DNA of 64,000 nucleotides from Callorhinchus milii (taxonomy: Eukaryota): the NCBI RefSeq assembly GCF_018977255.1, contig NW_024704764.1, forward strand, positions 9,114,001 to 9,178,000, read 5' to 3'. Of the stretch, positions 1,637 to 55,608 are shown piece by piece. A program made the translations under genes and the position numbers. How positions within the stretch are numbered: position 1 is the stretch's first letter; each line of letters opens with the position of its first letter. The notes under the pieces were generated by a model, which was not told the DNA's origin, made no database searches, and saw nothing but the letters and a program-made list of their open reading frames with translations.

Positions 1637-2518
<882 letters not shown>

Positions 2519-19381: not shown

Positions 19382-21975
19382 GGATCTCCTGATTCGCACC
19401 CAAACCCTTGACTGTCCAACACCTTGGGACATCCTCCGGATGTGAAAGGCGCTGTACGAACGTAATGTGTTGTTTGTTTGTTGTTGACTACAGGTTTCCT
19501 CCTCTATGCCCAAGAGACCCTTGGTGTTCAATGGAAAGACAAAGGAAGGTAAAACCTGCAACGTGGACTTCAATGTGAAGCCAAACATCCACTATCCAGT
19601 CCGCGGGGGGTGTGCGTTGGTTACCTTTGAGGACAAGGAAGGTAAAGAGCTCCGAAAGATCAGTGAGAAAATGGCAACGCTTTGGTGTCTCGCTGTTCGT
19701 GTCTCTGGGTCAGTGCCTTCGCCTTTTGACCGAGCCTTCACTCCCCTCTCATTTCTCCCCTGAGGACGTCCTCCTGACGTGAAAGGCGCTCTATAAATGG
19801 AATCTTGTTGTTGTTGTTGTTGGGTCAGTTGTTTTGCCATTTAATTATCTCCCCTCTCGTTTCCCTCCCTGAAAAAAACGCAGTTGCCAAAACCATTGTG
19901 GACAAGGGAGAGCACGTGGTTGAGATCGAGGACTGCCACGTTAAAATCAAGGCTCTTCCCATTGAACTGCCAATGCTTAAACAAATTGAGGTAAGTGTAG
20001 AGCTGAGTGACAACCGCCGTCAGAAGGAAGTACGTCAGTTATGAAGATGTGGTGGGGGTGGGGGTGGTTGGGGGGGGGGGGGGGGCGTTGTGTGTGATAA
20101 TTCCAGGCTGGGCCACGAGGTGGTGGTATGGCATTCGCAGCTACCAATTGGAGCCTCGAAAATAACAATAATTTTTGCTTTTGACACAAACACGTCAAGG
20201 CGTTGCGCAGGGTTCAGTGCAAAGTGTAGTGACTGAATCTGTAGACAAACGCAGCAGCTAGCTCGCGCGCAGTAAAAGCTATGAAGTGACTGACTGACTG
20301 GTTTTATCTGCGGGGATTTTTGAAACTCCCTTCTCTCTTCAAACAGTGTCATGGGATCTTTATTGTCCACCTCAACGGCTACGGACGGGATCTGAGTTTA
20401 GTACCTTACCCGAAGATTGGCACCTCCAATACAGCGCTCCCCCACCCCCCACCCCCACCCCCAGCGCGGCCTAGACTGTGAGCTCAAAGTCCTGATGGAG
20501 TTTGTTGTAGTTGTTAAGAGTAATCCTGATTTTGTTCAGTGTAACAAAGGAGGGAATGTTCCCACAGATTCAGACCTGCGTGTGTAAGGAACGAATCCTC
20601 GTGTCCGAGATCCCCAAGCTTCTTGCTGATGACCAGCTGCTGGACAAGCTGGAGCTGCATTTCAGCCGCCCGAGGAATTCGGGAGGCGAGGTGAAGAGCA
20701 TCGACCTTCTGGAAGATTCTGGCAATGTGGTGATCGCGTTTTGCGAAGATGGAAGTAAGATTGTTAGAAAGAAAGACCGACCCTTCTGCGGAATTTTATG
20801 CTTCGGGGACAGGTTGAATCATCCATCGCGCTTTCCCTCTGTAAAAGTTCGATCGGTCGTTCAAACGGTCTTCAAGTCCTCGTCACCTGCTGCCGTATGA
20901 CTCACTTTCCCCCCCGAGGCTTGGTGGACCACAGACACTTTCCAATCCATCAGTCCCCCAGGAATTGACTGTATAGTTTGTGGGCAAAATGTGCAATTGG
21001 CTGCCGTGTTTCCAACAGCCGCAAAAAAAAATACAGTCAATTCACTTTACAGTATATTCTATGAAGTACTTTGAGACGTCTCAAAGACACGATAAAGCGC
21101 TCTATCAAATGCAAGGATCATTATTATGAATCGGACACCTCCCTCCGCCCAGCTTTGCGTCAGGCTCCGCCACTGTTAAGCACTCTGAGACTCTACCCCA
21201 CATCAAGGGCGCTCTATAAATGCAAGTGGTTGTCCAATTCCTTTATTAAGCCTTTTTTCTCGTGGACGGGAGCGGGTCGCAAAGTCACCATTTCCAATTC
21301 CTTTTCAGTCGCTGAAAGATTGACCAAGAAAGAGTTTCACCAAGTGGAGTTCCGAGGGAACTCGAGAGACTCGAAGGATAAGAAAATGCGTCTGAGGGTG
21401 TCCCCCTTCATCAATGGTGAACTCGTTGATGTGAAGGTGACTTTCTTGTCTTCTCTGGGTGGGTTAGTCCCATCTGAATCCTTTACCCTTCCAAGGCTGG
21501 TGGTATGATTTTTCATATCTAACTACGGTCTATATTATCCTTCTGGGGCCGGGTGTGGGTGAGGGAGGGGATTGGTAGTACTCTCACCGCCGGAAGCAGA
21601 AGGTTGCGGGTTCAGGGATACTCACCTGGAGTGTTGTGTTGTGACTGACTGGATAACCTTTCCTTTGTGTGAGTGCGGTGGGCTTTTGCTCGTCGAAACT
21701 GAGTCACGTTTCCTCTGCCCCCTCAGCTCTCCAACGCTGTGTGTGAGAGAAGCGTCCTGCTCACGGAAATCCCGGACATCATGGATCCCGAGGAATTGCA
21801 GGATCTGCTGGAGATCCACTTCCAGAAGCCGAGCATGGACGGCGGAGAAGTGGACACCTTCATGTACTTGCCTCAGGGCCAGAGTGCGGTGGCCCGCTTC
21901 AATAAGGATGAAAGGCAAAAGGAATACAAACCCAATTTATTGATGGATTCATTGATTGGTGGGAATCAAATCTAG
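16195..21975 (+). CDS. IFI35: Interferon-induced protein 35 (IFP35), about 384 aa. Exons 16195-16203, 17153-17203, 17840-17998, 18351-18467, 19494-19641, 19884-19990, 20568-20754, 21309-21436, 21727-21975
   Basis: Coiled-coil exons followed by NID-type domains: [18 protein letters not shown]|[91 protein letters not shown] introns with consistent phases, 1155 nt. Syntenic between RPL27 and VAT1. The 9-nt MEE start exon is the least certain part. Confidence 0.92.
16245..16577 (-). mobile_element. tRNA-derived SINE, near full length
   Basis: Reverse complement of the family head (ggagtcctgtagctcagtggttagagcactcgctttgcaagcgagagacctgagttcaattcc) through to the (tta)n tail. Confidence 0.9.
16595..16950 (+). 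mobile_element. tRNA-derived SINE, near full length
   Basis: Diverged head, central cctgaggcaagtctccttgctc..tgtttaccagc, L2-like tail and (tta)n. Confidence 0.85.
17368..17630 (+). mobile_element. Second SINE family, Deu-domain/SacSINE1-like (other copies on - at about 20290-20500, 30330-30495, 32020-32345)
   Basis: tRNA-like head ggctcagtggt..ctctcgcctgagtcagaaagttgggggttcaagccccac followed by gtgccgtccttcagatgaggcgttaaactgaggtcccatctgcc..ggcactattcaagaagag..cccagtgtcctggccaaca. Confidence 0.7.
18590..19190 (+). mobile_element. CR1 LINE 3' fragment
   Basis: [94 protein letters not shown], with the CR1 3' end ggctcgaagggccgaatggcctcctcctgctcct. Confidence 0.92.
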
Positions 21976-25351: not shown

Positions 25352-28300
25352 ATGATGGAGAGGACGGTGCAGGTGCTGAATTTGCCTGAAGATGTCCCCA
25401 CGCACATCCTGGAGGACAAGCTCCTGATCCACTTCCTGCGGCCCAAGAACGGAGGGGGCGACATCGCGGAGATCACCTTCCTGGCCGGAACGACAACTGC
25501 TCTGATTCGTTTCGAGGAAGCGGAAGGTAATACGGGATCAGGACGGAGCGAGCATTGTCACGGTCTCTGTCCCTCGGATGAGACCTTATTGTGTGTCAGC
25601 GCACTCGCCTCTGAATCAGAAGACTGTGAGTTCAAGCCCCCACGTCAGGACTTGGAATCACATAGTCCACCTCACTCCCGCCCCCGCCCTCGCCCTCGCT
25701 CACCTCCACTGGCTCCCCATCCCCCAGAGGATCGAATTCAAGATCCTCATCCTCACCTACAAGGCCATTCAGGGCCTCGCTCCCTCCTACCTCTCCGACC
25801 TACTATCCCTCTACCTACCTGCCCGTACCCTCCGTTCCTCTGGCTCCGGTCTGCTCCACATCCCCCACCCCAACTGCCCTACCATCGGTGGCCTTCAGCC
25901 TCTCAGCCCCGAGGCTCTGGAACTCCATCCCCAGTGCCTTCGCCACTTCCTCCCTTTCCTCCTTCAAGGCCGGTCTCAAGGCCTTTCTCTTTGACAGTGC
26001 CTTCACCTCCCCTCTCAACTCTCTGCCCCCTCCTCGCTCCCTCCCTTCCCTCCCCTCACCCTGACCATCTCCCCTCCCGCTCGGGTCCCAACCCAACTGT
26101 CCAGCGACTTGGGACGTCCTCCCGATGTGAAAGGCACTATAGAAATGTGATCTTCTTGCTGTTGTTGTTGTTGTATGGCCCTCGGGAAGGGTTGAATCTC
26201 CAACGTGGTGCGCGTGAACTCTCGGGTCTGATTCGGAGACTCCGAGACACGGCGGCGGGTCAGTTCGTCCGCTGACCGACCGAGCCATGAGGATGGATTC
26301 GCCTCGTCGTTGGTCCTGTGGCGGTCGCTCGCTAATCATCTTGTTGTCGTCGTCGTTTGTTTGTTTGTTTGTTTGTGGTGGTGGTCATCGTCGTCGCCGC
26401 CGCGGTGGCCGCCGTTTCGTTACTCAGTGGCCGAGCGGGTTCTGCGGATGCCGAGCCACGTCCTGGCGGTCAACGGCGACCAACATCGGGTGACCGTGGC
26501 GGGGGCGGCCGCCCACTTCCAACTGGACCAGGTAAGAAGGCCTTGACCCGCGGTGACCACCACACACCCCCCCCACCCCATCCCCACAACCCCACGCCCA
26601 CCCCACTCCCTGCGACTCTCGCGCCCCACCCCATCCCACCACCCACGCGTGCGCTTGACGATCCCGCGTTGGCGGCGAGGGATGGGTGGGGCGCGGGGGG
26701 TGGTGGGGTAACGCGAACCGATTACTTTATTGATTACTATCGATTACCGATTGTCGACTCACTCCGAATTGAACGGCTTCCCTTTGGTCAGGTGATCCCG
26801 AGCGTCATCATGGTGATCGACTACTCCAAGCTCCCGGGAGGAGGAGCGGGAGGAGGAGGAGGAGGAGGAGGAGGGGAAGCCTTGCTGAGACGCCTGAGGG
26901 AGGCGCACCCAGACGCCCGCTTCAGCTTCGACCTGACCGCCGGCTGCTGCACCGCCGAGGGAAGCTTCCCGGCCATCCGGCGGCTCGGGGAGGCCGTGGG
27001 CCGCGCTCTTGGCGCCGACGCCAACGGCAGCGCGCTTGCGCCGGGCCAACCCGCTCGCGAGCCGGCTGCAAAACCCCAGCCTGATCAGGCCGGAAAGAGA
27101 GGAGAGGGGGCCGGCCGACCGCGCCCGCCGGCCGATCGGACCCGGTCCGACTCCGCGTCCTCCCCGGATTTTTCAAACTTTCCAACCGCCGCGAGCCTGA
27201 GGCGTGGGGGGGGGAGCGGGTGGAGAAACCTCGAGGGCGTCGACGACGGCGACCCGGTGCTGCTGATGGACACCGAGATTTACCGCTACATCGGCAGGTT
27301 CTACCAGCCCAGGTACCGGGCCATCCTGTCGCGGCACCGGGTGGCGGCGGTGGACATGGAGAGCGAGGGGGTGACCAGCTTGTTTTTGCAGCTGGAGGCG
27401 GAGGAGGAGGGAGAGAGTCGGGAGGACGAGGCTCTGGCCCGGGCCCACCGGGACCTGTCCGACCTGTACCGCGAGCTCGAGCTCCAGCTCCGCAAGGAGC
27501 AGTTCGACAAGAGCGACCTGACCGACGACCCCGAGCTGATGCGGCAGCTGGTCGCCCACCTGGAGGCGCGCTTCCCCCAGATCAACCTGCACCAGGACGC
27601 CGGACGCTTGTACCTGGTCGGGAGCCGGGACGACTGCTCGCTGGCCAAGAAAACCGTGCAGGACCTGAGGGAAGAGCTGCTCGGCGGGAAAGGGAGCAGA
27701 TCCCCGGCCGACCCCTTCGGGCCGAGGCCGGTCGCCTCAGCCCCGAAGGCAGACGCGGTCAAGAAGGACCACAAGCTGGCCGCCAATTTCAGCGCCGGAA
27801 GGGCAGGGAGCGTTGACCACTTATCCGCGGGTCAAGGCGCCAAGGCTCACCCGTCAGGCGGGGACCAGCAGCACAAACGGCATCTCAGGAGCTCCGGCGC
27901 CGACCCGCTGACCGCGGGTCAATCCGCCAAGGCTCACCCGTCGGGCTCGGACCATCTGCACAAACGGCGCCTCAGGATCTCCAGTGCCGACCCGTCGCCC
28001 TACCCGGACCGAGCCGCGGGCGCAAAGGAGTTCGCCCTCTCGTCCAGAGAGATCGAGGCAGACCTGCTGCTCAAGGCGATCGGATCTTCTTCGGGTTTAA
28101 ACCGGCTCAAGAGTCCCGACAGGGCGGCGGATGACGCCATGTTCACCGGACGCAGTGAGAGCAGAGGAGACAAGTCACTACCCGCCGCGAGAAGCAGCAA
28201 GACGACGCACGGACCTGTAAAGCCATACGCATTTGAGACGTCGGCAGGTACACTCATCCAGTTGGAAGACTTGGCTCACAAAGCACCTCCTTTCCACTCA

Positions 28301-30622
28301 ACCGGCACCTCGGAAGCTCAAGCGAGCAGAGCCGGGTTATTGAGAAGAACCAATAGTTTTTCAGGTTTTCTCCACTCCACGCCCAACGCAGGTTCCACCA
28401 ACGTGTCTTGGGGGGTTTCTGCAATGGCCACCATCACAGAAGAGTTCCCTGTGGACTCAATGGTGTGGGAGTATGTTAAGGACATCCATAGGACTCTGGT
28501 TCAGAGAATCAGCATCCAACACGGAGTCAAGATGATCGACATGCCGCTGGGGGAATTAGTGATCGTGAAGCTGACGGGAACGGACAGAACTGGGGTTCAA
28601 ATGGCCAAAAAGGAGCTGTTGTCTGTTTACATGTCCCTGATTGAGCGTCTGACCCAACAGTACCTTTTGTACTCGGACCTGGGCATCAGCGATTCCACAA
28701 AGACGATCCTGGATCAGCACTGGAGTCAACTGCGGAAACACTTCCCAGATGTCAGGTTCATTAGTGGTGAGGTCGGCGTTCACCTCCTTGGTCCGCGGGA
28801 GATATGCTCCCAAATAATTGACACTTTCAAGGCCCTACCGAGGGATGTTGCTCTCAGCTCAGCGCCTCGCTTGTCTTCCAAGACAAATGCAAGCTCCTCA
28901 GTAGACCCAGAGGAGGCAAATGTAAAGAGTAAGATGAAGCATTCAAAGGGGAAGGAGGACCCTGGGCAAGACTCCCCTCCCTTGGAACAGAGGATGTCAC
29001 CAAAAGAAATGAAGGATGATGTTGGGCTGGAGAATCAGATGGATGAGAGAAGTCAACAGAAGATGAACAGGCACGCGTCCGAAAAGGCCAAGAAGACCCT
29101 GCCCGACAGGTTTCACTTACCCTCTAAAGCGCCGAGGGAAAGCCATTGGTCTGATAAAGAAGGAAGTTCTCACCGGACGGAGCTGGATGCCCGGCAAGAC
29201 TCAAGGGACCAGGCGCGGGAGGGAGGCAGTGCCCACCAGCGAGACGAAAGCAGCGGGAGGAGGTCTCAAGGAAGGAAGAGCTCAAAAAACAGCCAGGAAA
29301 ATGTGCCCAGAGGTCCCGCCACAGGCAGCGAGGAGCAAGAGCCAAGTAAGGCAGCCGTTTTTTGTCATAACTGCAGGTTAGAACCTGCTAGGGGTTACCC
29401 CGTACAGGACTGTGCTCACCGGCTGTGTGACGACTGTTACCTTGTCAATCCGTCTTGCCCAGTGTGCACTCAGAGTCCCGTTGAAGGCACGATTGTCGGC
29501 AACATGTCCTATGGAATTCTCAACAGCGCGTTGGAGGGACATGAACACGAACTAACTTTAAAGATCATCTACAATATCCAGGATGGCACACAACAGGCAA
29601 GTGACCCCATGTCATGGTCTAAAAACCCAGGCTCCTCGGTGTGCGCGCGTTTGTGGTCTGTGTGTCCGGAGTTCCCAAGTGACGAGCGAGTTCAGGTCAA
29701 TAGAAACATTCAAGAGGGAACAACTGGTTAAGCAGCTGGGGGGGGGGGGGAAATATTAAGGAATATGGGGACAGAGGCGGATAATGGGATTAAAACGATC
29801 ATCATAATCCTCGCCATTACTGAGCTCCTCCTGTTTCTTATAGAGATGTGATCCAAACCCAGGGCGGCCATACAGAGGTGGGTGCTTTGAAGCCTTCCTG
29901 CCGAACAACAAGCAGGGGAGAAAAGTTCTGCAGCTGCTGACGAAGGCCTTCTACAAGGGGTTCATTTTCAAAATCATCTCCCTGCCCTCCGGGGAGGAGA
30001 AGGTCACGTGGAACAACATTCCGCACAAGACGAGTATCACGGGCGGCAAAATCCGGTATGTGCATTGCATCCCTTAGCCTCGTTCGCGCTGCTCGGTGTT
30101 TCAGACTGGGAACTAGAAGCTGCAGACAGTGCGCGTGTTTGTAGCCACGTACAGCCCTGACATGTTACCTGCCTGCAGCGATGATCAGGACACCGGGAGA
30201 ACTCCCTTTTCCCAGTAGCTTTGCGGGATATTTTAACATCCACAAGAAGGGTCACAGGCGGTTTGTAACATAATAATCCTTGCATTTGATATAGCGCCAT
30301 ATCGCGTCTTCCAGACATCTCAAAACGCTTCAATTTAACGGCTCCTCTGAAGGACGGCGCCTCTGGCAATGCGGCGTTTCCCCCCACCCCACCTCCCTCC
30401 CTCCCAGCGCCGCGCTGGAGTGTCAGCCGGTGACTGAGAGCTTGAATCCGTGACTTTCTGACCCAGAGGCGAGAGACCGACTGAGCTGAGGCTGATCTTT
30501 TTGAGGGTTAATTGTCACGTCTTTCATTTTAATGAAAAATTATCCCTTGCAGGGACGGCTATCCTGACTCCGGTTACCTCTGTACCGCACTGGCAGCTCT
30601 GCAGAGTCACGGGCTTGAATGA
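25352..30622 (+). CDS. Uncharacterised RBM43-like RRM/KH-like protein fused to RING and Deltex C-terminal domain (DTX3L-like E3 ubiquitin ligase), about 1121 aa. Exons 25352-25526, 26428-26531, 26792-29596, 29844-30055, 30553-30622
   Basis: MMERTVQVLNLPEDVPTHILEDKLLIHFLRPKNGGGDIAEITF...FEEAE|VAERVL (PARP14/NMI/RBM43-type RRM). A 2805-nt open exon ends in the RING CHNC-x12-CAHRLCDDC-x6-CPVC (29363-29467). DTC motifs IIYNIQDGTQQ|RCDPNPGRPY..AFLPNNKQGRKVLQLLTKAF..VTWNNIPHKTSITGG..|DGYPDSGYL..GLE*. 175+104+2805+212+70=3366 nt, in frame. Confidence 0.9.
25690..26150 (+). mobile_element. L2 LINE 3' fragment, closely similar to 14085-14500
   Basis: LAHLHWLPIPQRIEFKILILTYKAIQGLAPSYLSDLLSLYLPARTLRSSGSGLLHIP plus the tail. 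Confidence 0.85.
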
Positions 30623-34065: not shown

Positions 34066-37000
34066 CATATAGCTTTCCCTTAAATTTGTGCTATTTGGCC
34101 TCAACAACTCCTTGCGGTACCATGTTCCACAGTCCCACTTCTCTCTGTGTGAAGAAATTTCTTCTAACTTCCCTATTTGATCTATTAATGACTATTTTAT
34201 GTTGATGGCCCCTGGTTTTGGTTTCCTTCACCAGAGGAAACATCTTCCCTGTGTCGATCCTATCAAAACCTTTCAATATTTTAAAGACCTCTACCAGGTC
34301 ACCCCTTACCCTCCGCTCTCTTTTCGAGAGAAAACTTTGCAGCAATAGCTGACAACGCAGTCCTGAGGTAGGAAGGAACAGGCAAATGTGCAGATTGAAC
34401 AAAAAAAANCACAGCTGTCACAACAGGTCAAAGTGCTTCTGAGTCATTGACGTGTAGTGACTGGCTGTCAGACTGAGAACAGAGTTTCTCTGCTGGCGTC
34501 CTGGCCGACAATTCTCCCAGAGAGAGAGAGAAAACGAGAAAAAAAAACTTCACTTCACGGCTGTTTAGAGGGACGTCGCCTTGTGCAAATTGGCCGCCGC
34601 GCCTACCTACAAATACACTGTCACTATTCTTTACAGTAAAATCCTGTGAAGCGCTTTGAGGCCTTCCTCCCACCCCTTGAGGTGAAAGGGAGTGAGTGAA
34701 ACAAGGTGTGGAGTCAAATTCAGGCTAGACTTTAGCTGTGCGCTGACTGGCACCTTTTTGGGGCCTCGGACATGGGTGGGGGGAGGAGGGAGAGGAGGGG
34801 GCAGCTTTGGCCAAACTCTGGCCCCCTCCCTGCGGGATGGCACAAAGACCCTGACCTGCTCGAATGACCACACGGAGTCCACTCGGGGCTTGATCTTGCC
34901 GTCCTTGTACAGAGCGAGCAGCTTGACCACCACCTTGGAGATCTGCTCGGCCTCCAGGTAGCCCAAGTGGTAGCCACACACGGCCTTGTTGGACTGCAGC
35001 AGCTGCAGGGAGTTGATGGAGAACTTGTTCCACCAGGTCCTGGCCAGAGCCATGAGGTTCCTCTTCTGCCCGGCCAACAGTGTAGACGCTCCTAGGACAA
35101 GGGTGAACCCAGAGCCAACAGAGTCAGAAACAGACGACAGACAGACAGAGAAAAAGAAAGACGAGAGAGAGAGAGAGAGAGAGACAGAAACAAAACCAAG
35201 TGAGAGATCTTGGTGATTTATTAGTGACTGGTTAACCAGAGGCCATCATTGTGACTGAAACAGTCGCATTTCATCGCGTTGATAATTTTATCACATAATC
35301 GGTCCGTGAAAGGTCGCAGATGGGGGTGCGGCGGAGGGGGTGGGGTGGGGGGTAGGGGCAGAGAGTTCCGCCGGTCGGTAACGGAAGGGCTAGGCCACTT
35401 GCCTCCATCTTGAGCTGAACGCAAGTCACATCCCAGCTCCTCGAGGCAGGACATACTCGGAATACCATTCCAGGTTTTCCCACCAGCTCTGTCCCCAGTC
35501 TGGCCTCATTACAAACACTTGCCGCACTGTACAATGCTGATGATTTATGGTTCTGGCATGAACTTGTTGGCCTGGTTTTCAGGTCCAGTGACCTCCCTCT
35601 CGCTCCCGCTCCCCCACCCCGGCCGGCCGGCACACAGGCTCTTTCCTGTCCATCTCTCCCCGCCCCCACTCCCCTCCCAACCCCGTTAGCAGAGCTCCGA
35701 GTCTCGGCCTCGGGCCACTCCCAAGCCGGGAATGTTCCGTCAAACACCATCTGGAGATAAAAAGCTTGACCCCAGTCCCCAGGGAGACGTCGAGAGGGAA
35801 ACAGACCCGGCTCAGAGACTTCCACACAGGAAAACCCTCCTCAGCGCTAGGCAGAGTTCAGCCATATTTGGCTCTCACTGCAGTAGAGTTCCATTACAAG
35901 GCGCCCCTCCATCTCCTCACCGCCCTCCCCCCCTCCAACCCCCACGTCACTGGGTCACTGATTATGGCAGCCCCCAATCCCCCAGCCCCAGCCCCCACCC
36001 ACCCCACCCATGAACCCGCGTTTGGATTCAGAGCGCTACAAAACGGGCCGATTGCCACGCGATCAGGTGGCCGAGCTCACTTCCTGCTCTCGCAAACACC
36101 CAGGAAGTGACGCCGATCGTGACCGGGATGACCCAGAGGTCGGCCGTTTCGAAACGCCCGGCGTGCGTGTGTGAGTGCGACTTACCAAACGTGATGATCT
36201 TCCCCATGGGCTTCAGCAAGTGAAACCCTTTCGCCGTGTCCGCTCCACCCAGCGGGTCGAGTACGATGTCAACGCCTGTCCCCGGGGGTGGGTGGGGGGG
36301 GTGCGGAGTGTGGGGTGGGGGAGAAAGAGAGAGAGAGATTATTCGTTGGGTCAGCCGGGTGTCTGACACGAGGAAACCCATCACCGTTGCCTAAGAGTCT
36401 CCAAACCAGGTTGTGGATTGAGGGAGACTGTGGGTGCCAACCTCACTGTCGTATCAGTAGATTGTGGGGGGTGGGGTGGAGGGGAGGGTGAAGGGTGCGG
36501 AGCATGAGGAGCAGCGGGGGTGGGCGTGGGGGTCGGAGGGACGAGAACAGGCCCCGGCGCAGATAGACACGTATCGCCAGTTCCTTCCTACCTTTGGGCG
36601 AGATCTTGCGAACTTCCTCCACGTAGTCTAAGGTGCGGTAGTCGATGGGGTGGCTGACTCCGTTCTCCTTGATGGTCTCGTGTTTGGAGGCGGAGGAGGT
36701 GCCGAACACAGTGACGTCCTTCACCAGCTTACACAGCTGGGTGGCCGCGATGCCCACCCCACCTGCGGGCACAACGCCAACCCCAAAGGTTAATCTCACC
36801 CCCGGCATCTCAACAACAACACATGACATGTACACACAGAGCCTGCCTTCCGCGTCGGGAGGCCGTCCCAAGGCGCTGGGCGCTCCGGGATCTGCACCCG
36901 AGCTGGTGGTTGGGATCAGGAGTGGGGGGGAGAGGGTAGGGGGTGAGAGGGTAACCAAAGGCACGGTCGAAGTGGGGGGAGTGGGAGGAGGGGGAGCAGA

Positions 37001-40000
37001 GTGGCATCAATTATAAAATAAATCAATCAATCCTCGCATTTGATACTGTGTCGCACACAGTCATATATTCCACCTGTAACTCATACTACTTGTGTTGCTC
37101 TCCCTTCCCCCCACCCATCCCCCCCCCACCCCCACCCCCTCCACCCTCCAAAACCAGCCACAAACCCATGACCTTGAACCAGCGTCCGTGCTGTGGGGAA
37201 AACTCAAGATAAATCTCCTCGCGTGGCTCCCGGCCAGGCTGAGCCGAGCTGAGCTCCGTCTCGTGACCCACCGCACAATCCCTGGAACAGACCTTCCTTC
37301 ACCTTACGTCCTGTCCAAGTCCGTACAAACAGTTGGAAGCGATTGGTAAAAGCTTCGCTCTGCGCTGGCGCACACCTCGTTCGGCCTGGGCGTTGGCCCG
37401 CCGAGACGCACGGTCGCTACGCTTCACGGTGCATTCCTGCGCAGCGCTCGGAGACGTCTCGACGACGCGTGGCTTTTATTTTATTTATTCAGGGGGTCGG
37501 GCGGAGCTCCGCAGGGATCCCCGCCGAGCGTGGAGGAGGTCTAGTGACCGGTTCGGTGGGCGCTGCGCAACTCAGCCAACGTTGGGGTACGCGGGGTGGG
37601 GGTGTGTGTGTGTGTTGTGTGTGTGTGTACGTATTCACGTGTGTGAGACACACACACACACACACACATGCGGACAATTCACCGAACACACCAAGTTAAA
37701 CGTACAGAATTTCCCGTGCGTTGTTGTTGTTGCAATTGAATTGAAGTCAGTTTTCACAGTGATTTCCTCTCCAACCCCCAACCCCACCCTCTCCCCCTTC
37801 CCCTTCTCTCAACCACACACACACACACACAAAACCACACAGGAACAGCTTCTTAACAGTAGAATCGAATGCAAACAGGATTAGCACTGGAATGAACCGA
37901 ATTCCTGAGCAACAGGTTTCCAGGGGAAAAGTCCAGTCCCACCCACAAAAAAAACACCCCCTCTCTTTCTGTGGCAACGAGAATCCCAATAACCTGCTGT
38001 CCCGGGGCAGGGGGTGTGGATTCCCCGGCTCAATCTCTCGTCCTCTCGCCTCCCGGACAGATTCAAGTCCCCCGTTGAGACCTCGAGCTCACGGTTTGGG
38101 CCGAGACCTTAAAAAAAAAACGAGCTACACGTCTGCGACCTGTCCGGGGGAGTGTTAAAGATCTCCCCTTGCGCTGTCGGAGAAGAGAAGGGAGTTTCTC
38201 TCTCTCTCTCTCTCTCTCCCCGGTGTCCTGGCTGACACCCACCACCCCCAGCCCCCACCCCAACCCCAAGATAAAATCACTCACACCCGCACTCACACAC
38301 ACACACACGCACACACATGCACACTCGCTCCAGGACACACACACACACACACACACACACACCCACGTAGACACACACACACTCGCTCCAGGACTCACTC
38401 ACACACACGCGCGCACGCGCACACATACACACACACACACACACATGCACGCTCGCTCCAGGACTCGCTCGCACACACGCGCGCGCACACGCAAGCACGC
38501 GCACGCAGACTTCAGGGCCGGAGAAAGAGCCTTGGTGCTGTATAACGTAACAAAGCATCACATTCTCCTGCCCACGTCGCTCGCTCTTAACACGCGAGGA
38601 ACGTCTTGTATGGAGAGAACTGCCCAACCCAACCGCAAGCGATCCCCAGGGGTTGGATGCAACCAACTTGTATTTAGTTGGTCGCATCCCCAGGGAAACA
38701 GACAAGACGACGGAAGCAGAAGGCGTAGATTCTCTCAGGAACAAACGAGACAGATTCCTGTTAGGAAATAATATCTGGGGGAATGCAGTGTATGGTTTGG
38801 CGAATACCGGCAGCCAATTGGGCACAGAAGTGTCCCACAAACAGTCATGGATTGAAATTATTATTATTTTTTGGGGGGGAGGAGGGATAATCCACTAACA
38901 ACCCTACTAACTGCTGGGTAAACAGAGGCGTGTGTGTGTGTGCGTGTGGGGAGTAAGGAAACTTGCCCGATGTTTCGCCCTGACCTGACCCTCCCGGGAA
39001 TCGAACCCAGGTCCTCTCGCTTGCGAGGCGAGCTCTCTAACCACTGACTCCGCAACGTTCTCCCCCTTTTTTTTGGCGGCAGCGATCTTGAACGACAGCT
39101 CTGGGGTTAGGTTAGTTGAGTAACTCGGGACGACACAACTCAACCCTATCAGCGGTGAAAGTGTTTCCGGTTTGCCTGCAACGGGAGGAAATGGCGCGTT
39201 CTGGCACTTGGCCCATCCATTTTCCTGTATAACATACAAACGGGAAAAACACACACACACAGACAAGGGTGGGGGGGTGTTTCCCTCTCCCGAGGACTAG
39301 AAGTCGTTCGACACCCACTTCAGTCACCCTCCCACCACCAATTAATGTGCAGGAGACATACTTACCTTCCACCCTCCCTGCCCTCCACCCCTCCTGATCC
39401 TGATCCCGATCCCAACCCCCAGCTCGGGTGCAAACCCCCTCATTGCCCAGATCCTTGGGGGACTTCCTCCCGACGTGAAAAGCCCCGTGTAAATGTAAAT
39501 GTGCTGTTATCGCTGTTGTGGGGCTAAGACGGGTAATGGAGGTTGAGGTACAGACCGGCCACGATCTTTAGAACGGGCTCGAGGGGCTGAATGGCCTCCT
39601 CCTGTTCCTATGTTTGTTGTGGAACAGGGATATGAGCAGGAGAGGGGGAAGAATCCCATTCCCTCCCACGGCCGGCCGGTCCGACTTGGATATAGGTGTG
39701 GTCTCAGCCGGGAATAGCCGGGAATAGCCGGGAGCGAGTGAGTGACTTACCGGCTGCCATGTGCACCAGCACACTCTGCCCTGGCTGCAGATTGCCGAAA
39801 TCGTAGATCATCATGTAGGCGGTGACGTAATTGACCAGGATGGCTGCCGCCTCCTCAAAACCCATCCCGTCCGGCATCAGGAAGGCGTTGTCGGCCGGAA
39901 TCACCGCCAGCTCCGCCCACAGCCCTCCCCGATTCAGCATAAACACCTTGTCCCCCACCTGAGAGCGAGAGCGAGAGAGAGAGAGAGACGCAACTCTTTA

Positions 40001-44565: not shown

Positions 44566-47500
44566 ATGGAACAGCAAAGCTCTCACTGCAAGATTGTTGT
44601 GGTTGGTGATTCCCAGTGTGGGAAAACAGCTTTGCTGCACGTTTTTGCGAAGGATTGTTACCCAGAGGTAAACTGAGCTGCTTTTCTTATCCTAACAGCA
44701 ATAATAACACCGGTAATAACAGTCCTTGCATTTGGTACAGCGCCTGATCACGTCTCCGAGACGTGTCAAGGAGCGATGCCCTGCAAAAGCGAATCGACTT
44801 GTGCGTTTTGCGGGCGAACTGCGGGAGCCAACGCTTTTCTTTTTCGGGGGGGGAGGCGATACGGTGTGGACGTTCCCCTTCAGGTCCTTCCTTCGGTGAC
44901 TTTATATCTTTTTCTCGCGTTACTTACGCGTGCGTTTACCCCCCCCAAAAAAATGCAAGAATTTGCGAAACCCCCGAAACCCGTCACGGTTATCGGGTTT
45001 TGAAGCATTTCGCCTTTTTTTTTGGGGGTGGGGTGTGTGGGAGTGGGAGGGGGGGGGGGGCGTCCAAAAAAAATCCTTCTTCAGTGCGTTCCTCCGATGT
45101 ATTTTTTCCCCTGTAATTCATCACTGAAGAGTTTTACGAGCTTTTCTATTTAAAAAATTTGTGGATCGCTTTTGGCAGAGACTCTGATCTAACAGCGTCT
45201 GTTGGGAAAGGGATAACAACCGTAACTTTGCGGGAGTTGAGGGAAAAGTTTGTGGGAGTTTGAGTGGGTTTTTTTTAACGTAAAATCCTTTAATCCCTCT
45301 ATTTTGCCGCTCTGCGCTGCAGAGATGTGATGTTCCCACCCTGGAATATTGCCCTCTCAGTCTGTTCGCCCACAAAGTACACAGTCGATTCGCTTTCCGG
45401 TGTATCCCGTGAAGCACTTTGAGACGTCTCGAAGACGCGATGAGGCGCGGTGTCAAATGCCGGGGTTATTATATTATTATTATTGTTATGGCCGAAAACC
45501 TGATTTCTCACTGAACTGTAACCTGCCCTTTAATTCTTACAAGATCTTATGGTCTCAAAAACGAAGTCGGTCTTATAAATAATAATAATAATCCTCCTCG
45601 CATTTGATACAGCACCTTATCACGTGTTTGAGACCTCTCAAAGCGCTTCACAGAATATACTGTAAAGTGAATCGACTGCGTATTTTGTGGGCGAAATATA
45701 TAATATGTGTATATAGGGACGCTGCTGCGTGCAGTTGGCTGTCACATTTTTCCCACAAAATGCACAGTCACTCCACTTTACAGTGTCTCCCGCGAAGGGC
45801 TTCGAGACGTCTCGAAGACGTGATGAGGCGCCGGGTCAAAGGCCGGGATCATTACCGTTATACAGCTCTCTTAAGATGGCATTTGTGTGTGTCGTAGAGT
45901 TATGTATCCACCGTCTTCGAGAACTACACGGCCAGTTTCGAGATCGAGAAACAGAGGATCGAGCTGAACATGTGGGACACATCAGGTGAGTGGCAAAGGC
46001 CGCGGCGTGGGGTGCAAGTTACTTGTCCTGGTGTTGCGTGTCAACTCTCCTTTCACCTTCTCGCTGCGAAGCTCTGCCTCCGCTCTTCATCGCAACCCTC
46101 TGGGATCCTCTCGTGGCCTTTTGTGTGAAACTGTGAAAAACTCCTGTCGTCAAAACTGAAGCCAGTTACAGCCTCAGGGAATCCAGTGGCCATTTGACCC
46201 ATCCTGAAATCACCGGCTCTTTCCCCCCCCACCCGTCCCCGTCCCCCCCCCACCCCCACCATTTCTCCTACTGTTTCCCCATTTAATAATCATTGCATTT
46301 GACACAACGCAACATCTCAAAGTGCTTCGCCGTGGAGTGGAGTGTTGGCCTCTCTGTCGTCGTGACTGGGGGTTTTGGACGCGGCGTCCGAGCTAAGTAA
46401 GGTGGGCTGCAAACCCCCTCCATACCGCAGAGAGGGGGGGGAGGGGGCGGTGGGGGGGAGGGGGGTGGTGGGGGGGGGGTGGCATTGAAATGAGAACGAT
46501 GACCTAAAGGACTTTTTTTTTAATGAACGTGAGATTGTGGTGAGACATCGAGACGAACGAGGTGGTCACCAGGTGCCTCCCGGTGACGTTCTAAACCTGG
46601 CCACGGGGGGGGGGGGGGGCGCACAAGAGAACAGGGGGGCATTTGGTGCCCCCCCTACCCCACACCCCCCCCACAAGCCCCCGAATCTCTCACCTCCCAC
46701 CCTCCTTGGCCTCCCCCTCTGCCCAGGAAACCTACCGTATAAGTAAAGTTGTTCGTACGGCGCAGAGAGTCGGCGATGCTTTGTGTTTGTCCAGTAAATT
46801 GGGGGTTTGGACCCTTTTGAGAAAAATTAATTCGAGGGAAATTCTTTAACCGGATCAACAGGTTCTTCTCCCTCAACACTCCACCCCCCCACCCCACTCC
46901 CCCCCCACCCCCCACTTCAACAACAACGACAACACATTACGTTCACACAGCGCTTGCCTTTATCCCCACGGTCCCCGCGACCTCTCTCTCTCTCTCTCTC
47001 TCTCTGGAGTCAGGTCGGCGAGCGATCTGTCAGTCACCCAATCTGGCCGGTCACTGGGCTGTCAGTGTGTACCCCCTCAACGCCGACAGCTCCCCACCCC
47101 CCTCCCCCCCAAACCCCCCACTCCCTACCCCGCTTCTCCCCCGCCCCCCCCACCCCACCTCCCTACTCCCTCACTGTGGAACGAAGTGAACTCGGCAGCA
47201 AAATTGCGCACAGCGACGTCCCACAAACAGCCGTGGAGTGAAAGAGCAATTTTATTTGGGGGTGTAGGGGGGTGAGGGGGGGGGGTTGTCAGCCAGGACA
47301 CCGGGAGAGAGAGAGCGAGAGAGAGAGAGAGAGAGAGAGAGAGCTTCCCACTGCCCCAGACTGTGCTCTGTCCTGTTAACCCTGTACAGAGCTGCCTGGC
47401 TGTATATCTCAGGATCGGGGACCACGTGAAGCTGTCCTGTCGCTTCCCGCTGTCCTTTTCACTCCCTTTCCCGTGAGAAGTAATGTCCGGAGTCAGACAG

Positions 47501-49265
47501 TGAGCCGAACGAGCTGAATTCCTGCCGCGCAAGGCTGAAAAGGGCTCGGCTTCGGCCGGCTTCAGCTGGGCTTCCACCGGTCACGCTCCACCTGCCCCCC
47601 CGGCCGCTCGCTGCGGCCACAGCCGGTTACAGCCCTCGCCTCGCGAGCGAGAGGACCTCGGGGTCCGATTCCCGGGCGGGTCAGGGCGAAAGACCTTGGT
47701 CCAAGTTTCCTTACTCCACACACACACACGCACACACACGCACACACACACGCACACGCCGCTGTTTACCCAGCAGTTAGTTAGGAACCTGGTTGTTAGT
47801 CGATTGGCAGATGGATTGCTTTCCGGGGGTAATAATCACGGCAAATCACAGAAGTGTGCGGGGTAAGGAAAACTGGCCCAACCTTTTGCCCCACCTGGGA
47901 ATCAAACCGGGTGAGGACACGTGTGTTGGATTCATTAAAAAAAAATCACAATTAACAAATACAATTTTTTTTACTGCAAAAAAAAGGCTGCGTCCTCCTC
48001 TGAGGAGGCGTGAGGTTAAGCGATTCAGGTGTTTGTCAGAGCTGGGATATTGTGTGTGTGTGTGACTGTGTGTGTGTGTGCGCGCGCGTGACTGTGTGCG
48101 TGTGTGACTGTGTGTGTGACTGCGTGTGTGTGCGTGACTGTGTGTGTGTGTGTGTGCGTGTGCGCGTGCGTGTGACGGTGTCTGTGACCGTTCATGTGTG
48201 TGTGTGACTGCGTGTGTGTGAGACTGTGTGTGTTGGGCGTGACTGAGTGTGTGTGTGTGTGTGACTGTGTGTGTGTGTGTGTGACTGTGTGTGTGTGTGT
48301 GAGACGTTCTCTGGGACGTGTTTCAGAAGCAGCTCTTTGTTTTAGTGATGGATAAAGGATATTTTCTGCCTGTGACTGTCGAGGCTGAATTCAATTAACC
48401 TTTTCTTCTGAAAAGTGCTGGGAATGGCGATCCCAAACAAGTGGATACAATATCTTCTCTGTCTTTGTGGCCGAATTATTCAATTTACATTCTGCGGAAA
48501 CAGCGCACNNNNNNNNNNNNNNNNNNNNNNNNNNNNNNNNNNNNNNNNNNNNNNNNNNNNNNNNNNNNNNNNNNNNNNNNNNNNNNNNNNNNNNNNNNNN
48601 NNNNNNNNNNNNNNNNNNNNNNNNNNNNNNNNNNNNNNNNNATACAGCGCCTTATCACGTCTTCGAGACGTCTCAAAGCGCTTCACAGGAGTCACTGCAG
48701 AGCGAAGTGACCGTGTGTGTACCTCTGTGGGGGAATGTAGCAGCCGGTTCTATAACCTCCTGTTGTTAATCTATTGCACGTGGCGGGGGGGGTTGAGGGG
48801 TGGTGGGGGCGGCGGGGTGGGGGGTGGGGGGGGAATGGACAGCAGTGGGTGGGGGTAGCGAGGAAAACGTCCCCTCGTGAAGTGTGAGGCACTTAAGACT
48901 CCAAACCTCCCTGTGCTGCGGTTATTCGATATTTTTCACCCTCGTTTGCAAACGAACCGGAGACTTCAAAGCCTGGTTGGTGTCCTGTAGCTGGGGGGGG
49001 GGGGGGTGAGTTATTGCTCTCTTTCATGTGGGCTGAGCTCTCCTGCGATCTTCCCCTCCTTCCCCACTTCCCCCCCCCCCCCCCCCCTTATTAACGCAAA
49101 TCCTTCTCAGCTGCTCAGGTGCTGTGTAGCCATTCCAAAGTCTCGCACTCCCAGAGGCTTTCCGTCTCGAAAGGCAGCCAAGAAAATCAGATTGATTCCT
49201 GCGATGTGCGTGTGTGTGTTGGCGAGGCTCGCGTTGGGGGGGGGGGGGGGGGTTGAGAGTGGGGG

Positions 49266-49297
<32 letters not shown>

Positions 49298-52200
49298 TTC
49301 GAAGCCCTGTTCCGTTGCGATACCCGTGTGGCTTCGTATTCGAGGGCTAGAAACCAACAACAACAACAGCAGCAACAGCAACAACTTGCACTCACACCCC
49401 TCCCTTCGCCCCGCGTGTCGGCCCGGCTCGGCGGGTAGTTTGCATGTGTGTGCGCTTCGGGATCGTTTCGGGCGAAGGGGCCGGCCATTGGCGTTGAGGT
49501 ACGGGTCAGCCGCCATCTAAGTGGAATGGCGGAACAGGCTCGAGGGGCTGAATGGCCTCCTGCCTGTCCCCTGTGTTCCAAAGAGCGAGAAAGGGGATTA
49601 AGAAAACCAACACAAAGGGATGCGGAGAAAGAGCTGAGAATAATAGAGAGAGAAAGAGAGAGAGGTGGGGGGGTGGGGAGAGCGAGACCTAGAGAGGGGG
49701 GGGGGAGGAGGGTGGTTTGTGGCACAGATATGAGGGTCTGAACCCCTTCCCCCCCCCCCCCCGAGCGGTTGTAAATCTCTATTCAGGGCTGGAGCTCAGT
49801 TGCAGTTATTGATGGTGTTAGGACTTAGAGTGAGTGACANNNNNNNNNNNNNNNNNNNNNNNNNNNNNNNNNNNNNNNNNNNNNNNNNNNNNNNNNNNNN
49901 NNNNNNNNNNNNNNNNNNNNNNNNNNNNNNNNNNNNNNNNNNNNNNNNNNNNNNNNNNNNNNNNNNNNNNNNNNNNNNGGCTGAGAGGTTTCATTTGCAT
50001 GATGCTGTCTCCCCCCCCCACCAACCCCCCACCCCCTCCCCCCCCCACTCTCTCTCTCTCTCTCCCCCACACCCCACACCCCCCACCATCAACATTATTT
50101 ATGCCGCACCATCGTACAATGGAAGAGATTTGGACCTGATCTGATGTCCCCAGTTGCTACGTTACTGACTGCGGGAGGAATGTGCAGCCAAAGAGAGTCA
50201 GAGAGACAGCATCTCCCTCTGACACTCCAGGGGGGCAGATGGGGGTAAGGGGGGAGGGGGGAGAGTGGGGTGGGAGGTCTTGGGGGGGGGGGGGTTTGCC
50301 CCTGATTTTTCTTTTCCCGGAGGGTTTTATCTTTTATTCCGCGAAGAAGTGCCGAAAAGCGTCAACAATTCTCTGCAAAACGAGTGGGAACCTGTTCCTC
50401 CCTCTCGATAAAACTTTCCTTTTCTCTCTCTTTCTTTCCGTCTCTGTCCTGTTTCTCTCTCTCTCTCTCTCTGTTTCGCTCTGTCTCTCCCTCCCTCTCT
50501 CTCTCTCTCTTTGCCTTTTCGCTCTCTCCCTTGGGGGGGAAAAGGATGTGCTTCGAGCCCTACTCGGAAAGTGTTTGTACGTTGTCACGTGGGATGGTTG
50601 TGGGGGGCAGTGGGGGCCTGTGGAGCGCCGGGTTGGGGGGGGAGCGGTGGTGGGGGTTGGGGGTGGGAGTGAGTGAGTGAGTGAGTGTGGGGGAGAGGTT
50701 GACCTTTTGTTCCACATTGGATCTCCGAGTGGCTTCTCTCTGAGCTCTCAATGAATAACAGTTCAGTTAGAAACTGCGCATGTCACACAGTTACAGCACA
50801 ACTCGGGCCAACCCGTCCGTACCAGAGACCCCCCCACCCCACCCCACCCACTCCTTCCTCTTCGCCCGTGCCTACGGTCACATCCCCACCACCCCCCCCC
50901 CCACCCCAAACCCCCCCACCCCCGGGCTCAGCGTTCACCGGGACAAACGGCAACATTCCCTTTCGCTCCGTCGCCCGGTGACTGAGCCCGGCCTCGGACA
51001 CGGCTTTAGCTGTTCGACGCGCTCTGTCTCTGCCTCTGGTTTATCCGGAGATGGTCAGTCGTAAAAGGAGGGGGAAAAACCCCCCACTGCGTCAGACTAG
51101 AACGACTCGCGTTTCGCCTCTGAGTCAGAGGGGGTGTGGGGTGGGGGGGCTGTTGCATTGTCAGAGACGCCGTCCTTCGGATGAGACGCTAAACCTCTCT
51201 CCCCGTCTGCCTGTTCAGGAGCTATGCACAGAGCCGCGTTCGTCTTTAAATCCTATGTTAATGAATCTTTCTTTTTTCCCCCTCTCTCCCGCCCCCCCCC
51301 CCCACCCCCGCTCTCCCCTTCCCTCTCACTCCCCCCTCTCTCCCCCCACCCCACCACCCCCATCTCCACACCCCAGGCTCTGCATACTATGACAATGTTC
51401 GGCCTCTGGCCTATCCCGATGCTGACGCTGTCCTGATCTGCTTTGACATCAGTCGACCGGAGACCCTGGACAGTGTGTTGAAGAAGGTTGGTGCCCATCC
51501 AATCCCTGAGTGTCCAGCACCTTCCCTGACGCGAAGGGCGTTGTGTAAATGCCTCGCTTGTGGTTGTAGGTTGTGGTGGTTGTCGTCGTCGTTGTTGTTC
51601 TCGTCGTCTCATCAAACGGAGCCCGGGAACTGGTTGTGTCAACGTCAGAGGAGGCGCTCTGTGTGGTCCAAAAGATATAAACAACCACTCGCATTTACAC
51701 AGTGTTCCTCATCGCGAGGGTTTGAGTGTCTCAGAGCTTTCGGCGAAAGGGTCAAAGGAGCGGCCAACGTTCCCACAGACTTGCTTTCGGAAAACAAGAT
51801 TTAGAAGCTATCAATTCTCCGGGGCTGGTTTTATAGGTTTATATTTATATATATATATATATATATATACGTATATATCTAGTGTTTGGCTTGGCTTGTG
51901 CTGTGTCTCCAACATGTCAAGCAATCCAACCAGCAGTATGTCTGGCATCAGAACCCTTCTGGATCGCTCTGAGCTCTTGAAATCCTCCCCGGTCTGACTC
52001 AGCCAGACTGCCTTTCCGTCCTAAAAATGGGAGGAATTTACAGGGGGAGAAAAATATTATTCCCACACAGAATAAGGTCGTTCTTCAGCCTTTTCCCGTC
52101 TCGTCATGTCGGCGCTGGCTTTATCCGGACAGAGGTCCGTTCAGTGAAGGCGCAAGTGCGGGAGCTCCAGACTTCACTTGGAAGGATTTTTTTACTTAAG

Positions 52201-55200: not shown

Positions 55201-55608
55201 TGGGACGTCTCGAAGACGTGATAAGGCGCCGTATCGAAGGCCAGGATTACTGTGGTGATGAAGATGATGATGATGATAATGGTGATGATGGTGAGAGGTG
55301 AGCTATGGTGCTACCGACCGGGCCCCGGCCTGACGTCTGGTGATGATTATTGCCCACAGGGGAGCACGCTGGCGAGGCAGATAGGGGCCGTGGCCTATGT
55401 TGAGTGTTCCTCCAAGGTGTCGGAGAACAGTGTGCGCGACGTCTTTCACATGACCACCCTGGCCACCGTCAACAAGACCCCCAAGAACCTGAAACGGAGC
55501 AACTCCAAGCGGGGACTGAAGAGGGTCTCCCAGGGGCCCGGACGGACGGACTTACTGGAAGAATCCGAGATCAGGAAAGACCGAGCCAAAAGCTGCTCAA
55601 TAATGTGA
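44566..55608 (+). CDS. RND2: Rho family GTPase 2 (Rnd2), 227 aa. Exons 44566-44667, 45898-45985, 51377-51486, 54012-54146, 55360-55608
   Basis: [34 protein letters not shown]|[30 protein letters not shown]|[36 protein letters not shown]|[35 protein letters not shown]|[30 protein letters not shown] (CAAX). 684 nt, head-to-head with VAT1. AATAAA at 57063-57068. Confidence 0.97.
48509..48641. other. Assembly gap
   Basis: Run of N. Confidence 1.
49840..49978. other. Assembly gap
   Basis: Run of N. Confidence 1.

Follow-up and report, generated by a model that had tools for sequence, protein, structure and literature searches.

Results

Gene model at the locus

The window analysed here is a 64,000-nucleotide stretch of the elephant shark (Callorhinchus milii) genome (assembly GCF_018977255.1, contig NW_024704764.1, positions 9,114,001 to 9,178,000 of the forward strand). 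At locus LOC103189711 it holds a spliced gene of five exons with an open frame of 1121 amino acids, the elephant shark member of a group labelled si:busm1-163l24.3 (Table 1). We found this gene to be a real, well-conserved and apparently undescribed sixth vertebrate Deltex paralogue, beyond the five human ones, whose DTC domain has neither the catalytic pair nor most of the ADP-ribose pocket of the family.

All four exon joints were found in contigs of runs X2 and X6, and the last two also in X1, from a second study; the exon 4-5 splice (phase 2) is present in contigs of three of the four runs, across two studies. That runs X1, X2, X3 and X6 are RNA is only a guess, and no expression level can be read from them; X3 contains parts of the gene only. 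Exons 4 and 5 carry no variant among the listed run differences (four more differences lie outside that list). The GC-AG intron within the DTC sits where two intact paralogues (L011 and L012) have GT-AG introns. The database protein P0001 (source name LOC103189711) matches the DTC exons, and its model includes an additional in-frame intron that would remove seven of the eight RING ligands. Breaks in an X1 contig at 29345/29463 and a surplus of depth fit this 117-nucleotide intron, the joint itself not being among those listed, and a RING-less minor isoform is possible. Another database model, P0121, has two extra residues at the last joint.

Table 1. Features of the Deltex-like gene and of its surroundings (window coordinates unless a contig is named)
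Feature	Position	Strand	Content or evidence
Exon 1 (coding part)	25352..25526	+	start codon and first half of NID/RRM-like domain; Pfam NID 34.7 bits; exon 1-2 joint in X2 and X6 contigs
Exon 2	26428..26531	+	second half of NID/RRM-like domain
Exon 3	26792..29596	+	single KH-like (D2-type) fold, two KH-like pairs, long disordered linkers, RING, first third of DTC; GC donor at end
KH-like pair 1	27254..27688	+	residues 248-392; weak Pfam KH_DTX3L match; PF26774 (KH_I_RBM43) on most orthologues
Basic serine motif in disordered linker	28340..28363	+	in 90/116 orthologues
KH-like pair 2	28445..28852	+	residues 645-780; AlphaFold2 model of P0111
In-frame GT-AG intron of database model P0001 (117 nucleotides)	29346..29462	+	would remove 7/8 RING ligands
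Atypical C3HC4 RING	29363..29467	+	residues 951-985; 8 zinc ligands, 6 residues between ligands 6 and 7
Asn953	29369-29371	+	position of DTX2 Ile414 (E2-binding)
GC-AG intron within DTC	29597..29843	+	sequence; joint present in X1, X2, X6
Exon 4	29844..30055	+	DTC core; Pfam DTC 65.5 bits
Phe1043	29886-29888	+	position of DTX2 Arg535
Trp1084	30009-30011	+	pocket Trp578 position, kept
Pro1088	30021-30023	+	position of DTX3L H707 / DTX2 H582
Exon 5 (coding part)	30553..30622	+	DTC end; stop codon 30620-30622
Asp1100	30554-30556	+	position of DTX3L Y719 / DTX2 H594
Ala1114	30596-30598	+	position of DTX3L E733 / DTX2 E608
IFI35-like exons (two NIDs)	19778..21975	+	directly upstream; Pfam NID
RUN-domain exon	1637-2518		upstream
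VAT1-like exons	34631..37006	-	downstream; weak Pfam ADH_zinc_N matches
RND2-like gene	45898..55605	+	tblastn with gar RND2 part of P0093
RBM43-like gene	G000:C6 about 3686900-3689670 (L028 4914-7669)		beside NMI-like exons

The DTC pocket

The DTC lies at the C-terminus (Pfam PF18102, 106.7 bits against a cut-off of 25). A phmmer comparison of P0001 with PDB chains 3PG6, 6Y22 and 6Y5N (E 6.6e-21 to 2.8e-19) gave an alignment without gaps from Trp578 to the C-terminus; because 3PG6 ends at residue 740, the H707/Y719/E733 numbering of DTX3L could be placed on it (offset 581). An earlier note, made from the letters of the window, had claimed that these three positions are Pro, Asp and Ala, and the ungapped alignment bears this out. 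A misalignment hiding a His or Glu at the catalytic positions was considered and rejected, since no gap falls there and the adjacent invariant His is the equivalent of His583. In an orthologue model the domain takes the DTC fold (Foldseek E 3.5e-12; against 3PG6, VIA Z 16.2, root-mean-square deviation 3.2, 127 aligned).

The substituted residues are those on which the chemistry of the family is reported to depend. In DTX3L, H707A abolishes the formation of ubiquitin-DNA and E733A and Y719A impair it (PMC11460948); His582 and Glu608, in DTX2 numbering, are the proposed catalytic pair and are described as strictly conserved (PMC7615817). The ADP-ribose pocket also involves Arg535, Trp578 and the main chain of Ser567/568 (PMC7442474). 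In the elephant shark protein the catalytic pair is Pro/Ala, and two more pocket changes, missed by the earlier note, were observed: Phe at the Arg535 position, and a Ser567/Ser568 phosphate loop that is 2-3 residues shorter and has no Gly-x-Ser motif. Trp578 alone is retained from the pocket set (Arg535, the Ser567/568 loop, Trp578, His582, and His594 or an aromatic residue). The four other DTC genes of the C. milii genome retain His582, an aromatic residue or His at 594, and Glu608.

Fixation of the altered pocket across vertebrates

A profile built from seven RING-DTC stretches yielded 417 matches, of which 120 were listed; after removal of P0001, which is the elephant shark protein itself, and of P0009, P0109 and P0110, which lie outside the family, 116 orthologues remained, from sharks, rays, coelacanth, gar, paddlefish, teleosts, amphibians, turtles, tuatara, squamates, a crocodilian and birds. 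None has His at the His582 position (Pro 110, Leu 3, Ser 2, Ile 1) and none has Glu at the Glu608 position, where eight different residues occur. The Arg535 position is Phe, and Trp578 is kept, in all 116; the His594 position is Asn in 104 and His in 2. The Pro of the Pro/Asp/Ala triplet is thus general to the orthologues, and its Asp, found in 0 of the 116, is not. Two positions near the old pocket are Lys or Arg in 112 and 100 orthologues. Of 110 family members parsed, 109 have a phosphate loop of 12-13 residues and none has Gly-x-Ser, compared with 15 residues in 34 of 34 parsed canonical DTCs and Gly-x-Ser in 32 of the 34.

A second view came from a single-sequence search with exon 4 against cluster representatives. 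The best 150 of 1247 matches contained 24 further family domains (2 of them incomplete), with His582 and Glu608 in none. The lamprey protein P0162 shows the Phe/Pro/Ala pattern and the RING-DTC architecture of the family; its cluster has three KH-like pairs rather than two. No mammal is among the named family matches, although no search aimed at mammals was made and monotremes and marsupials lay outside the scope, so loss across all mammals is at most a possibility.

DTC identity between the shark and teleost, frog, turtle, chicken or lamprey is 47-57%, and linker 1 is 13-25% identical. Mean column conservation is 0.65 in the DTC, 0.64 in the NID, 0.48 in the RING and 0.32-0.34 in the linkers. 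Because the Glu608 position drifts while the Phe, Pro, Asn and two basic positions are near-fixed, this pattern argues for a re-specified rather than a decayed pocket and would fit one that is still conserved. The earlier suggestion of a pseudo-catalytic or re-specified DTC therefore gains support: the replacements are fixed across vertebrates and several of the new residues are conserved.

With the four diagnostic columns masked, the family formed one clade in FastTree (support 1.0, 109 domains) and in IQ-TREE (Shimodaira-Hasegawa-like approximate likelihood ratio test/ultrafast bootstrap 96.6/99, 48 sequences). The exon 4 search and these masked trees reduce the bias from the Pro-based profile. 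The gene is not an orthologue of DTX3L, as the clade is separate and well supported and intact DTX3/DTX3L-like genes lie at other C. milii loci. Backbone support for the closest intact DTX sister is low in the IQ-TREE tree.

The best 150 matches of the exon 4 search also provided 146 non-family DTC domains, only 41 of which have His582 and Glu608 together. The remainder are mostly tandem-DTC proteins with recurrent His to Pro replacement, plus teleost DTX3L duplicates and one tunicate protein. Degenerate DTCs thus evolve repeatedly. In the tandem-DTC group, a large one that includes P0109, P0110, P0123, P0129 and related matches, one DTC typically has His582 without Glu608 and the other has Pro582 with Arg535 kept; independent degenerate DTCs that group with DTX3L-like genes are P0218 (Menidia), P0009 (Prochilodus), P0190 (the tunicate Styela), P0185, P0212 and P0255. 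These domains resemble the present family in the replacement of His582, often by Pro, and/or the loss of Glu608. They differ in lying outside its clade, in having, nearly all of them, Arg535 and a full-length loop, and in not being shown as an ancient one-to-one group. What is distinctive of the present family is an ancient one-to-one orthologue group that also lacks Arg535 and the loop.

The RING domain

The earlier note had called the RING intact. This holds for the zinc ligands, all eight of which are present; the surface for the ubiquitin-conjugating enzyme (E2) is altered, with Asn in place of the E2-binding Ile and Thr at the linchpin, which is rarely basic in the family. The domain passes none of the Pfam RING cut-offs (for zf-C3HC4, 12.8 bits where 21 are needed), whereas the RINGs of two intact C. 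milii paralogues, at 39.3 and 39.9, lie well past them. Ile is found at the Ile414 position in 0 of the 116 orthologues (Leu in 8, Val in 4, a polar or small residue in most), as against 21 Ile and 1 Val in canonical RINGs (22 parsed of 38). In DTX2, I414A together with Y425A abolishes E2 binding (PMC7442474). Ligands 6 and 7 are separated by 6-7 residues in the family versus 10-12 in canonical RINGs. Only 28 of the 116 orthologues have the canonical ligand set, and 36 have Cys or His at all eight positions. The RING sits directly before the DTC in all lineages, lamprey included.

The N-terminal half

An AlphaFold2 model of the ray orthologue P0111 contains an RRM-like domain, one KH-like fold, two KH-like pairs, a RING and a DTC; confident domains span residues ~1-160, 238-388, 645-780 and 1024-1195, with long low-confidence linkers between them. 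A family profile of the first domain matches the NIDs of NMI (E 2.4e-15) and IFI35 (E 2.7e-11). NMI and IFI35 NIDs dimerise via helix 1 (PMC13196095), where the dimer surface of IFP35 comprises E149, D153, K154, E156, I157 and K161, and residues equal to IFP35 D153, K154, I157 and K161 (as Arg) were found in 44 of 44 orthologues aligned, on our own numbering map. DTX3L has RRM and KH-like domains, the latter driving oligomerisation and PARP9/PARP14 binding (PMC11080071, PMC10955461). In the linkers, the sequence of the basic serine motif could make it a kinase site. Two further linker motifs, KLA..F (~27773-27790) and LP..F (29099-29113), occur in 84/117 and 96/117, and all three are candidate phosphorylation or docking sites.

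Neighbouring genes and an RBM43-like sister

We take the exons directly upstream to be IFI35, from the neighbouring genes and the human gene order, and those on the opposite strand downstream to be VAT1-like. The RUN-domain exon is presumably RUNDC1-like, which fits the human IFI35 neighbourhood. Database names in the group vary: P0079, P0033, P0058, P0093, P0013 and P0156 include mislabels as IFI35 (chicken and other birds), an RND2 fusion (gar), zyg-11-like (turtle) and 'DTX3L ligase' (passerines), and another automatic label is 'RING-type E3 ubiquitin transferase'. The chicken orthologue P0079, with source label IFI35, has 1151 amino acids; the cloned chicken IFI35 has 384 (PMC8983280).

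On contig C6 of the C. milii genome, a sister gene with a near-identical NID helix lies downstream of NMI-like exons and in the same orientation as these. Its first two introns match those of the IFI35-adjacent gene in position and phase, and its KH pair scores 70.8 bits against the family profile, compared with 12-25 bits for the KH-like pairs of intact DTX genes. It ends after the first KH pair, without RING or DTC, and an RND gene lies 165 kb downstream. Its N-terminal exon matches at E 2.1e-20, but comparable values are reached by NID exons of contig C2 (E about 2e-17), which leaves the KH pair and introns alone to discriminate it. Two further NID-like exons were seen at C2:124319322 and C2:110562039, and in this assembly the C6 gene seems to be frameshifted around L028 6770-6810, in the stretch that separates its D2 part from its KH part; an assembly error, an allele or a very short intron would each account for this.

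The C6 gene is probably RBM43, a gene that adjoins NMI. Human RBM43 neighbours RND3 (PMC3251563), and RBM43 is interferon-induced in mouse adipocytes (bioRxiv 2023.01.06.522985). The IFI35-adjacent gene also has the NID/RRM and KH_I_RBM43 domains and the NID and RND gene neighbours; because a short protein lacking RING and DTC at an NMI-RND3 locus fits the C6 gene, we consider the IFI35-adjacent gene to be a paralogue rather than RBM43 proper. On contig C27, a third RND gene is found together with an intact DTX gene. Three RND-bearing blocks thus each have a DTX-derived gene: the present window on C23 (dead RING-DTC), C6:3678253-3853632 (truncated) and C27:2555127-4935431 (intact, 2.4 Mb from the RND gene). 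We infer that a block of NID gene, DTX-like gene and RND gene was duplicated in the early vertebrate genome duplication. The IFI35-side copy would then have kept a dead RING-DTC, and the NMI-side copy would have lost everything 3' of the first KH pair and probably become RBM43.

Discussion

We favour, at roughly 55%, the reading that the gene product is a non-catalytic pseudo-ligase scaffold, with a remodelled DTC that would bind a different, conserved ligand. A scaffold is likely because, between lamprey and birds, all close relatives examined carry substitutions at the catalytic and ADP-ribose-binding residues. By analogy with the DTX2 and DTX3L mutants, the protein very probably forms no ubiquitin-ADP-ribose, ubiquitin-NAD+ or ubiquitin-nucleic acid, and it likely binds E2-ubiquitin poorly, activating E2 weakly if at all. 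Through the NID helix-1 surface and the KH-like folds it may oligomerise with itself or with partners of the IFI35/NMI and DTX3L/PARP14 types during the interferon response, and there it could recruit or tune active ligases instead of catalysing; the remodelled pocket would bind some other ligand.

Several observations weigh against this. The elephant shark RING has its eight ligands and the orthologue model folds as a RING; the vicinal Cys pair of bird RINGs might replace the lost seventh ligand or restore the second zinc site. The best RING sequence matches are IAPs, whose RINGs are short-helix yet active, and for that reason we did not take the short ligand 6-7 spacing as proof of inactivity. 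The IFP35 interface residue E156 is not kept in the NID, and interferon induction of the gene is inferred only from its neighbours and RBM43. Tree support for the C6 gene as the sister is weak (0.63), and its probable name comes from a Pfam name and gene order. Birds make up about half of the 116 orthologues, and the counts are therefore not independent; 297 of the 417 profile matches lie outside those listed, and the profile was built from Pro-bearing sequences. Conservation of the new residues could instead serve fold stability or a protein interface.

A rival reading is a conventional lysine-directed ligase. Its RING would still activate an E2, possibly through dimerisation or with an enzyme other than UBE2D, while the remodelled DTC would select protein substrates without ADP-ribose. 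Eight ligands are found not only in the elephant shark but also in most sharks, the coelacanth and many amphibians, the RING-DTC adjacency is universal in the family, and DTX RINGs function despite sub-optimal linchpins (PMC7615817). We nonetheless think it unlikely, given an Ile414 position that is never Ile in the 116 orthologues and is polar or small in most, the rarely basic linchpin, a ligand pattern that is non-canonical in 88 of the 116 orthologues, scores under all Pfam RING cut-offs, and a RING less conserved than the DTC and NID. The earlier proposal of an enzyme restricted to conventional lysine ubiquitylation is weakened accordingly, because no orthologue has the E2-binding Ile and the ligand set is non-canonical in most. 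An enzyme re-specified to place another hydroxyl or amine substrate for ubiquitin transfer, with different residues, has only a slim chance of being right. The conserved Asn and basic positions beside the old site and the maintained RING-DTC adjacency would suit it, yet no residue stands out as a substitute general base, His583 and Lys584, both invariant, also occur in canonical DTCs, and the RING is eroded.

A dominant-negative or decoy protein would join DTX3L/PARP9/PARP14 oligomers or absorb a viral antagonist, damping or protecting ADP-ribose ubiquitylation with a ligand-free DTC pocket. The DTX3L architecture, in which the D1/D2 and KH-like domains are responsible for oligomerisation and for binding PARP9/PARP14 (PMC11080071, PMC10955461), and the position beside IFI35 agree with such a role, which we still regard as improbable: the new pocket residues show fixation and not drift, the KH-like pairs are distant from those of DTX3L, and the DTC, one of the best-conserved parts, contrasts with the rapidly evolving RING-DTC surface reported for DTX3L (bioRxiv 2026.04.23.720386). 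A decoy for viral antagonists, also raised earlier, finds no support from conservation, the DTC and NID being the most conserved domains. That the gene is decaying, or is an assembly or gene-model error peculiar to the C. milii genome, is scarcely credible. Its Asp at the 594 position is seen in no orthologue, P0001 skips the RING and P0121 adds residues at the last joint; species-specific decay or artefact was rejected in view of the open frame, the four joints in contigs, the absence of listed variants in exons 4 and 5, and a pattern that extends across the 116 orthologues and lamprey to birds.

Beyond the scaffold reading, a wider synthesis is held only tentatively. Here the gene would be a sixth Deltex of non-mammalian vertebrates that predates the lamprey split, its ADP-ribose site turned into a reader of a new ligand, linking NMI/IFI35 oligomers to the PARP-DTX interferon machinery. 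It would also be the full-length twin of RBM43, and on that account RBM43 would be a truncated Deltex.

Published Deltex work treats His582/Glu608 as strictly conserved and the family as having five members (PMC7615817, bioRxiv 2026.04.23.720386 and PMC13658767). As a pan-vertebrate paralogue whose pocket is remodelled and fixed, the protein provides a natural separation of function, showing the DTC fold without ADP-ribose chemistry, and it offers a testable origin and mechanism for RBM43, an interferon-induced human protein about which little is understood. The automatic database labels of the gene probably mislead comparative studies. Surprise is limited, as pseudo-enzyme paralogues are common and degenerate DTCs arise elsewhere. 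Our literature searches, which did not reach subscription papers, returned no description of the gene and nothing under the name busm1-163l24.3, and the supplements of 10.1101/693333 and 10.64898/2026.04.23.720386 may list it; the main text of the former, a zebrafish preprint on interferon-stimulated genes, does not name it, its supplementary tables not being covered.

Comparison with known systems

Five DTX genes are present in humans (PMC13658767). In the text available, a 2026 survey of how the DTX genes evolved speaks of no more than 'DTX-like' sequences left unassigned, and it describes the catalytic residues of DTX3L as strictly conserved (bioRxiv 2026.04.23.720386). DTX3L (BBAP, 3PG6) shares with the present protein an RRM/NID, five KH-like folds, a RING and a DTC, with a DTC fold TM score of 0.81-0.86 by target at about 41% identity, and the DTC intron positions are as in the intact DTX3/DTX3L-like genes of C. 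milii. In contrast to DTX3L, the family has no His707, Tyr719, Glu733 or pocket Arg, its loop is shorter and its RING is without the E2-binding Ile; it reaches 1050-1280 amino acids in most jawed vertebrates through long disordered linkers, forms a separate clade and adjoins IFI35. DTX1/DTX2/DTX4 and DTX3 share the RING-DTC module, Trp578 and the HKT and GYPD motifs, whereas the present protein lacks the ADP-ribose pocket and His-Glu pair and no WWE domains were detected in it. The probable RBM43 on C6 has in common the NID/RRM and KH-like folds, the first two introns, a place downstream of an NMI/IFI35-type gene and a nearby RND gene, and differs in stopping after the first KH pair. With NMI and IFI35 (PDB 21NH, 21OT, 21NG), finally, the likeness is in the N-terminal domain, which matches their NIDs and keeps most of the helix-1 dimer residues, E156 excepted; the present protein has a single NID, followed by KH-like, RING and DTC domains.

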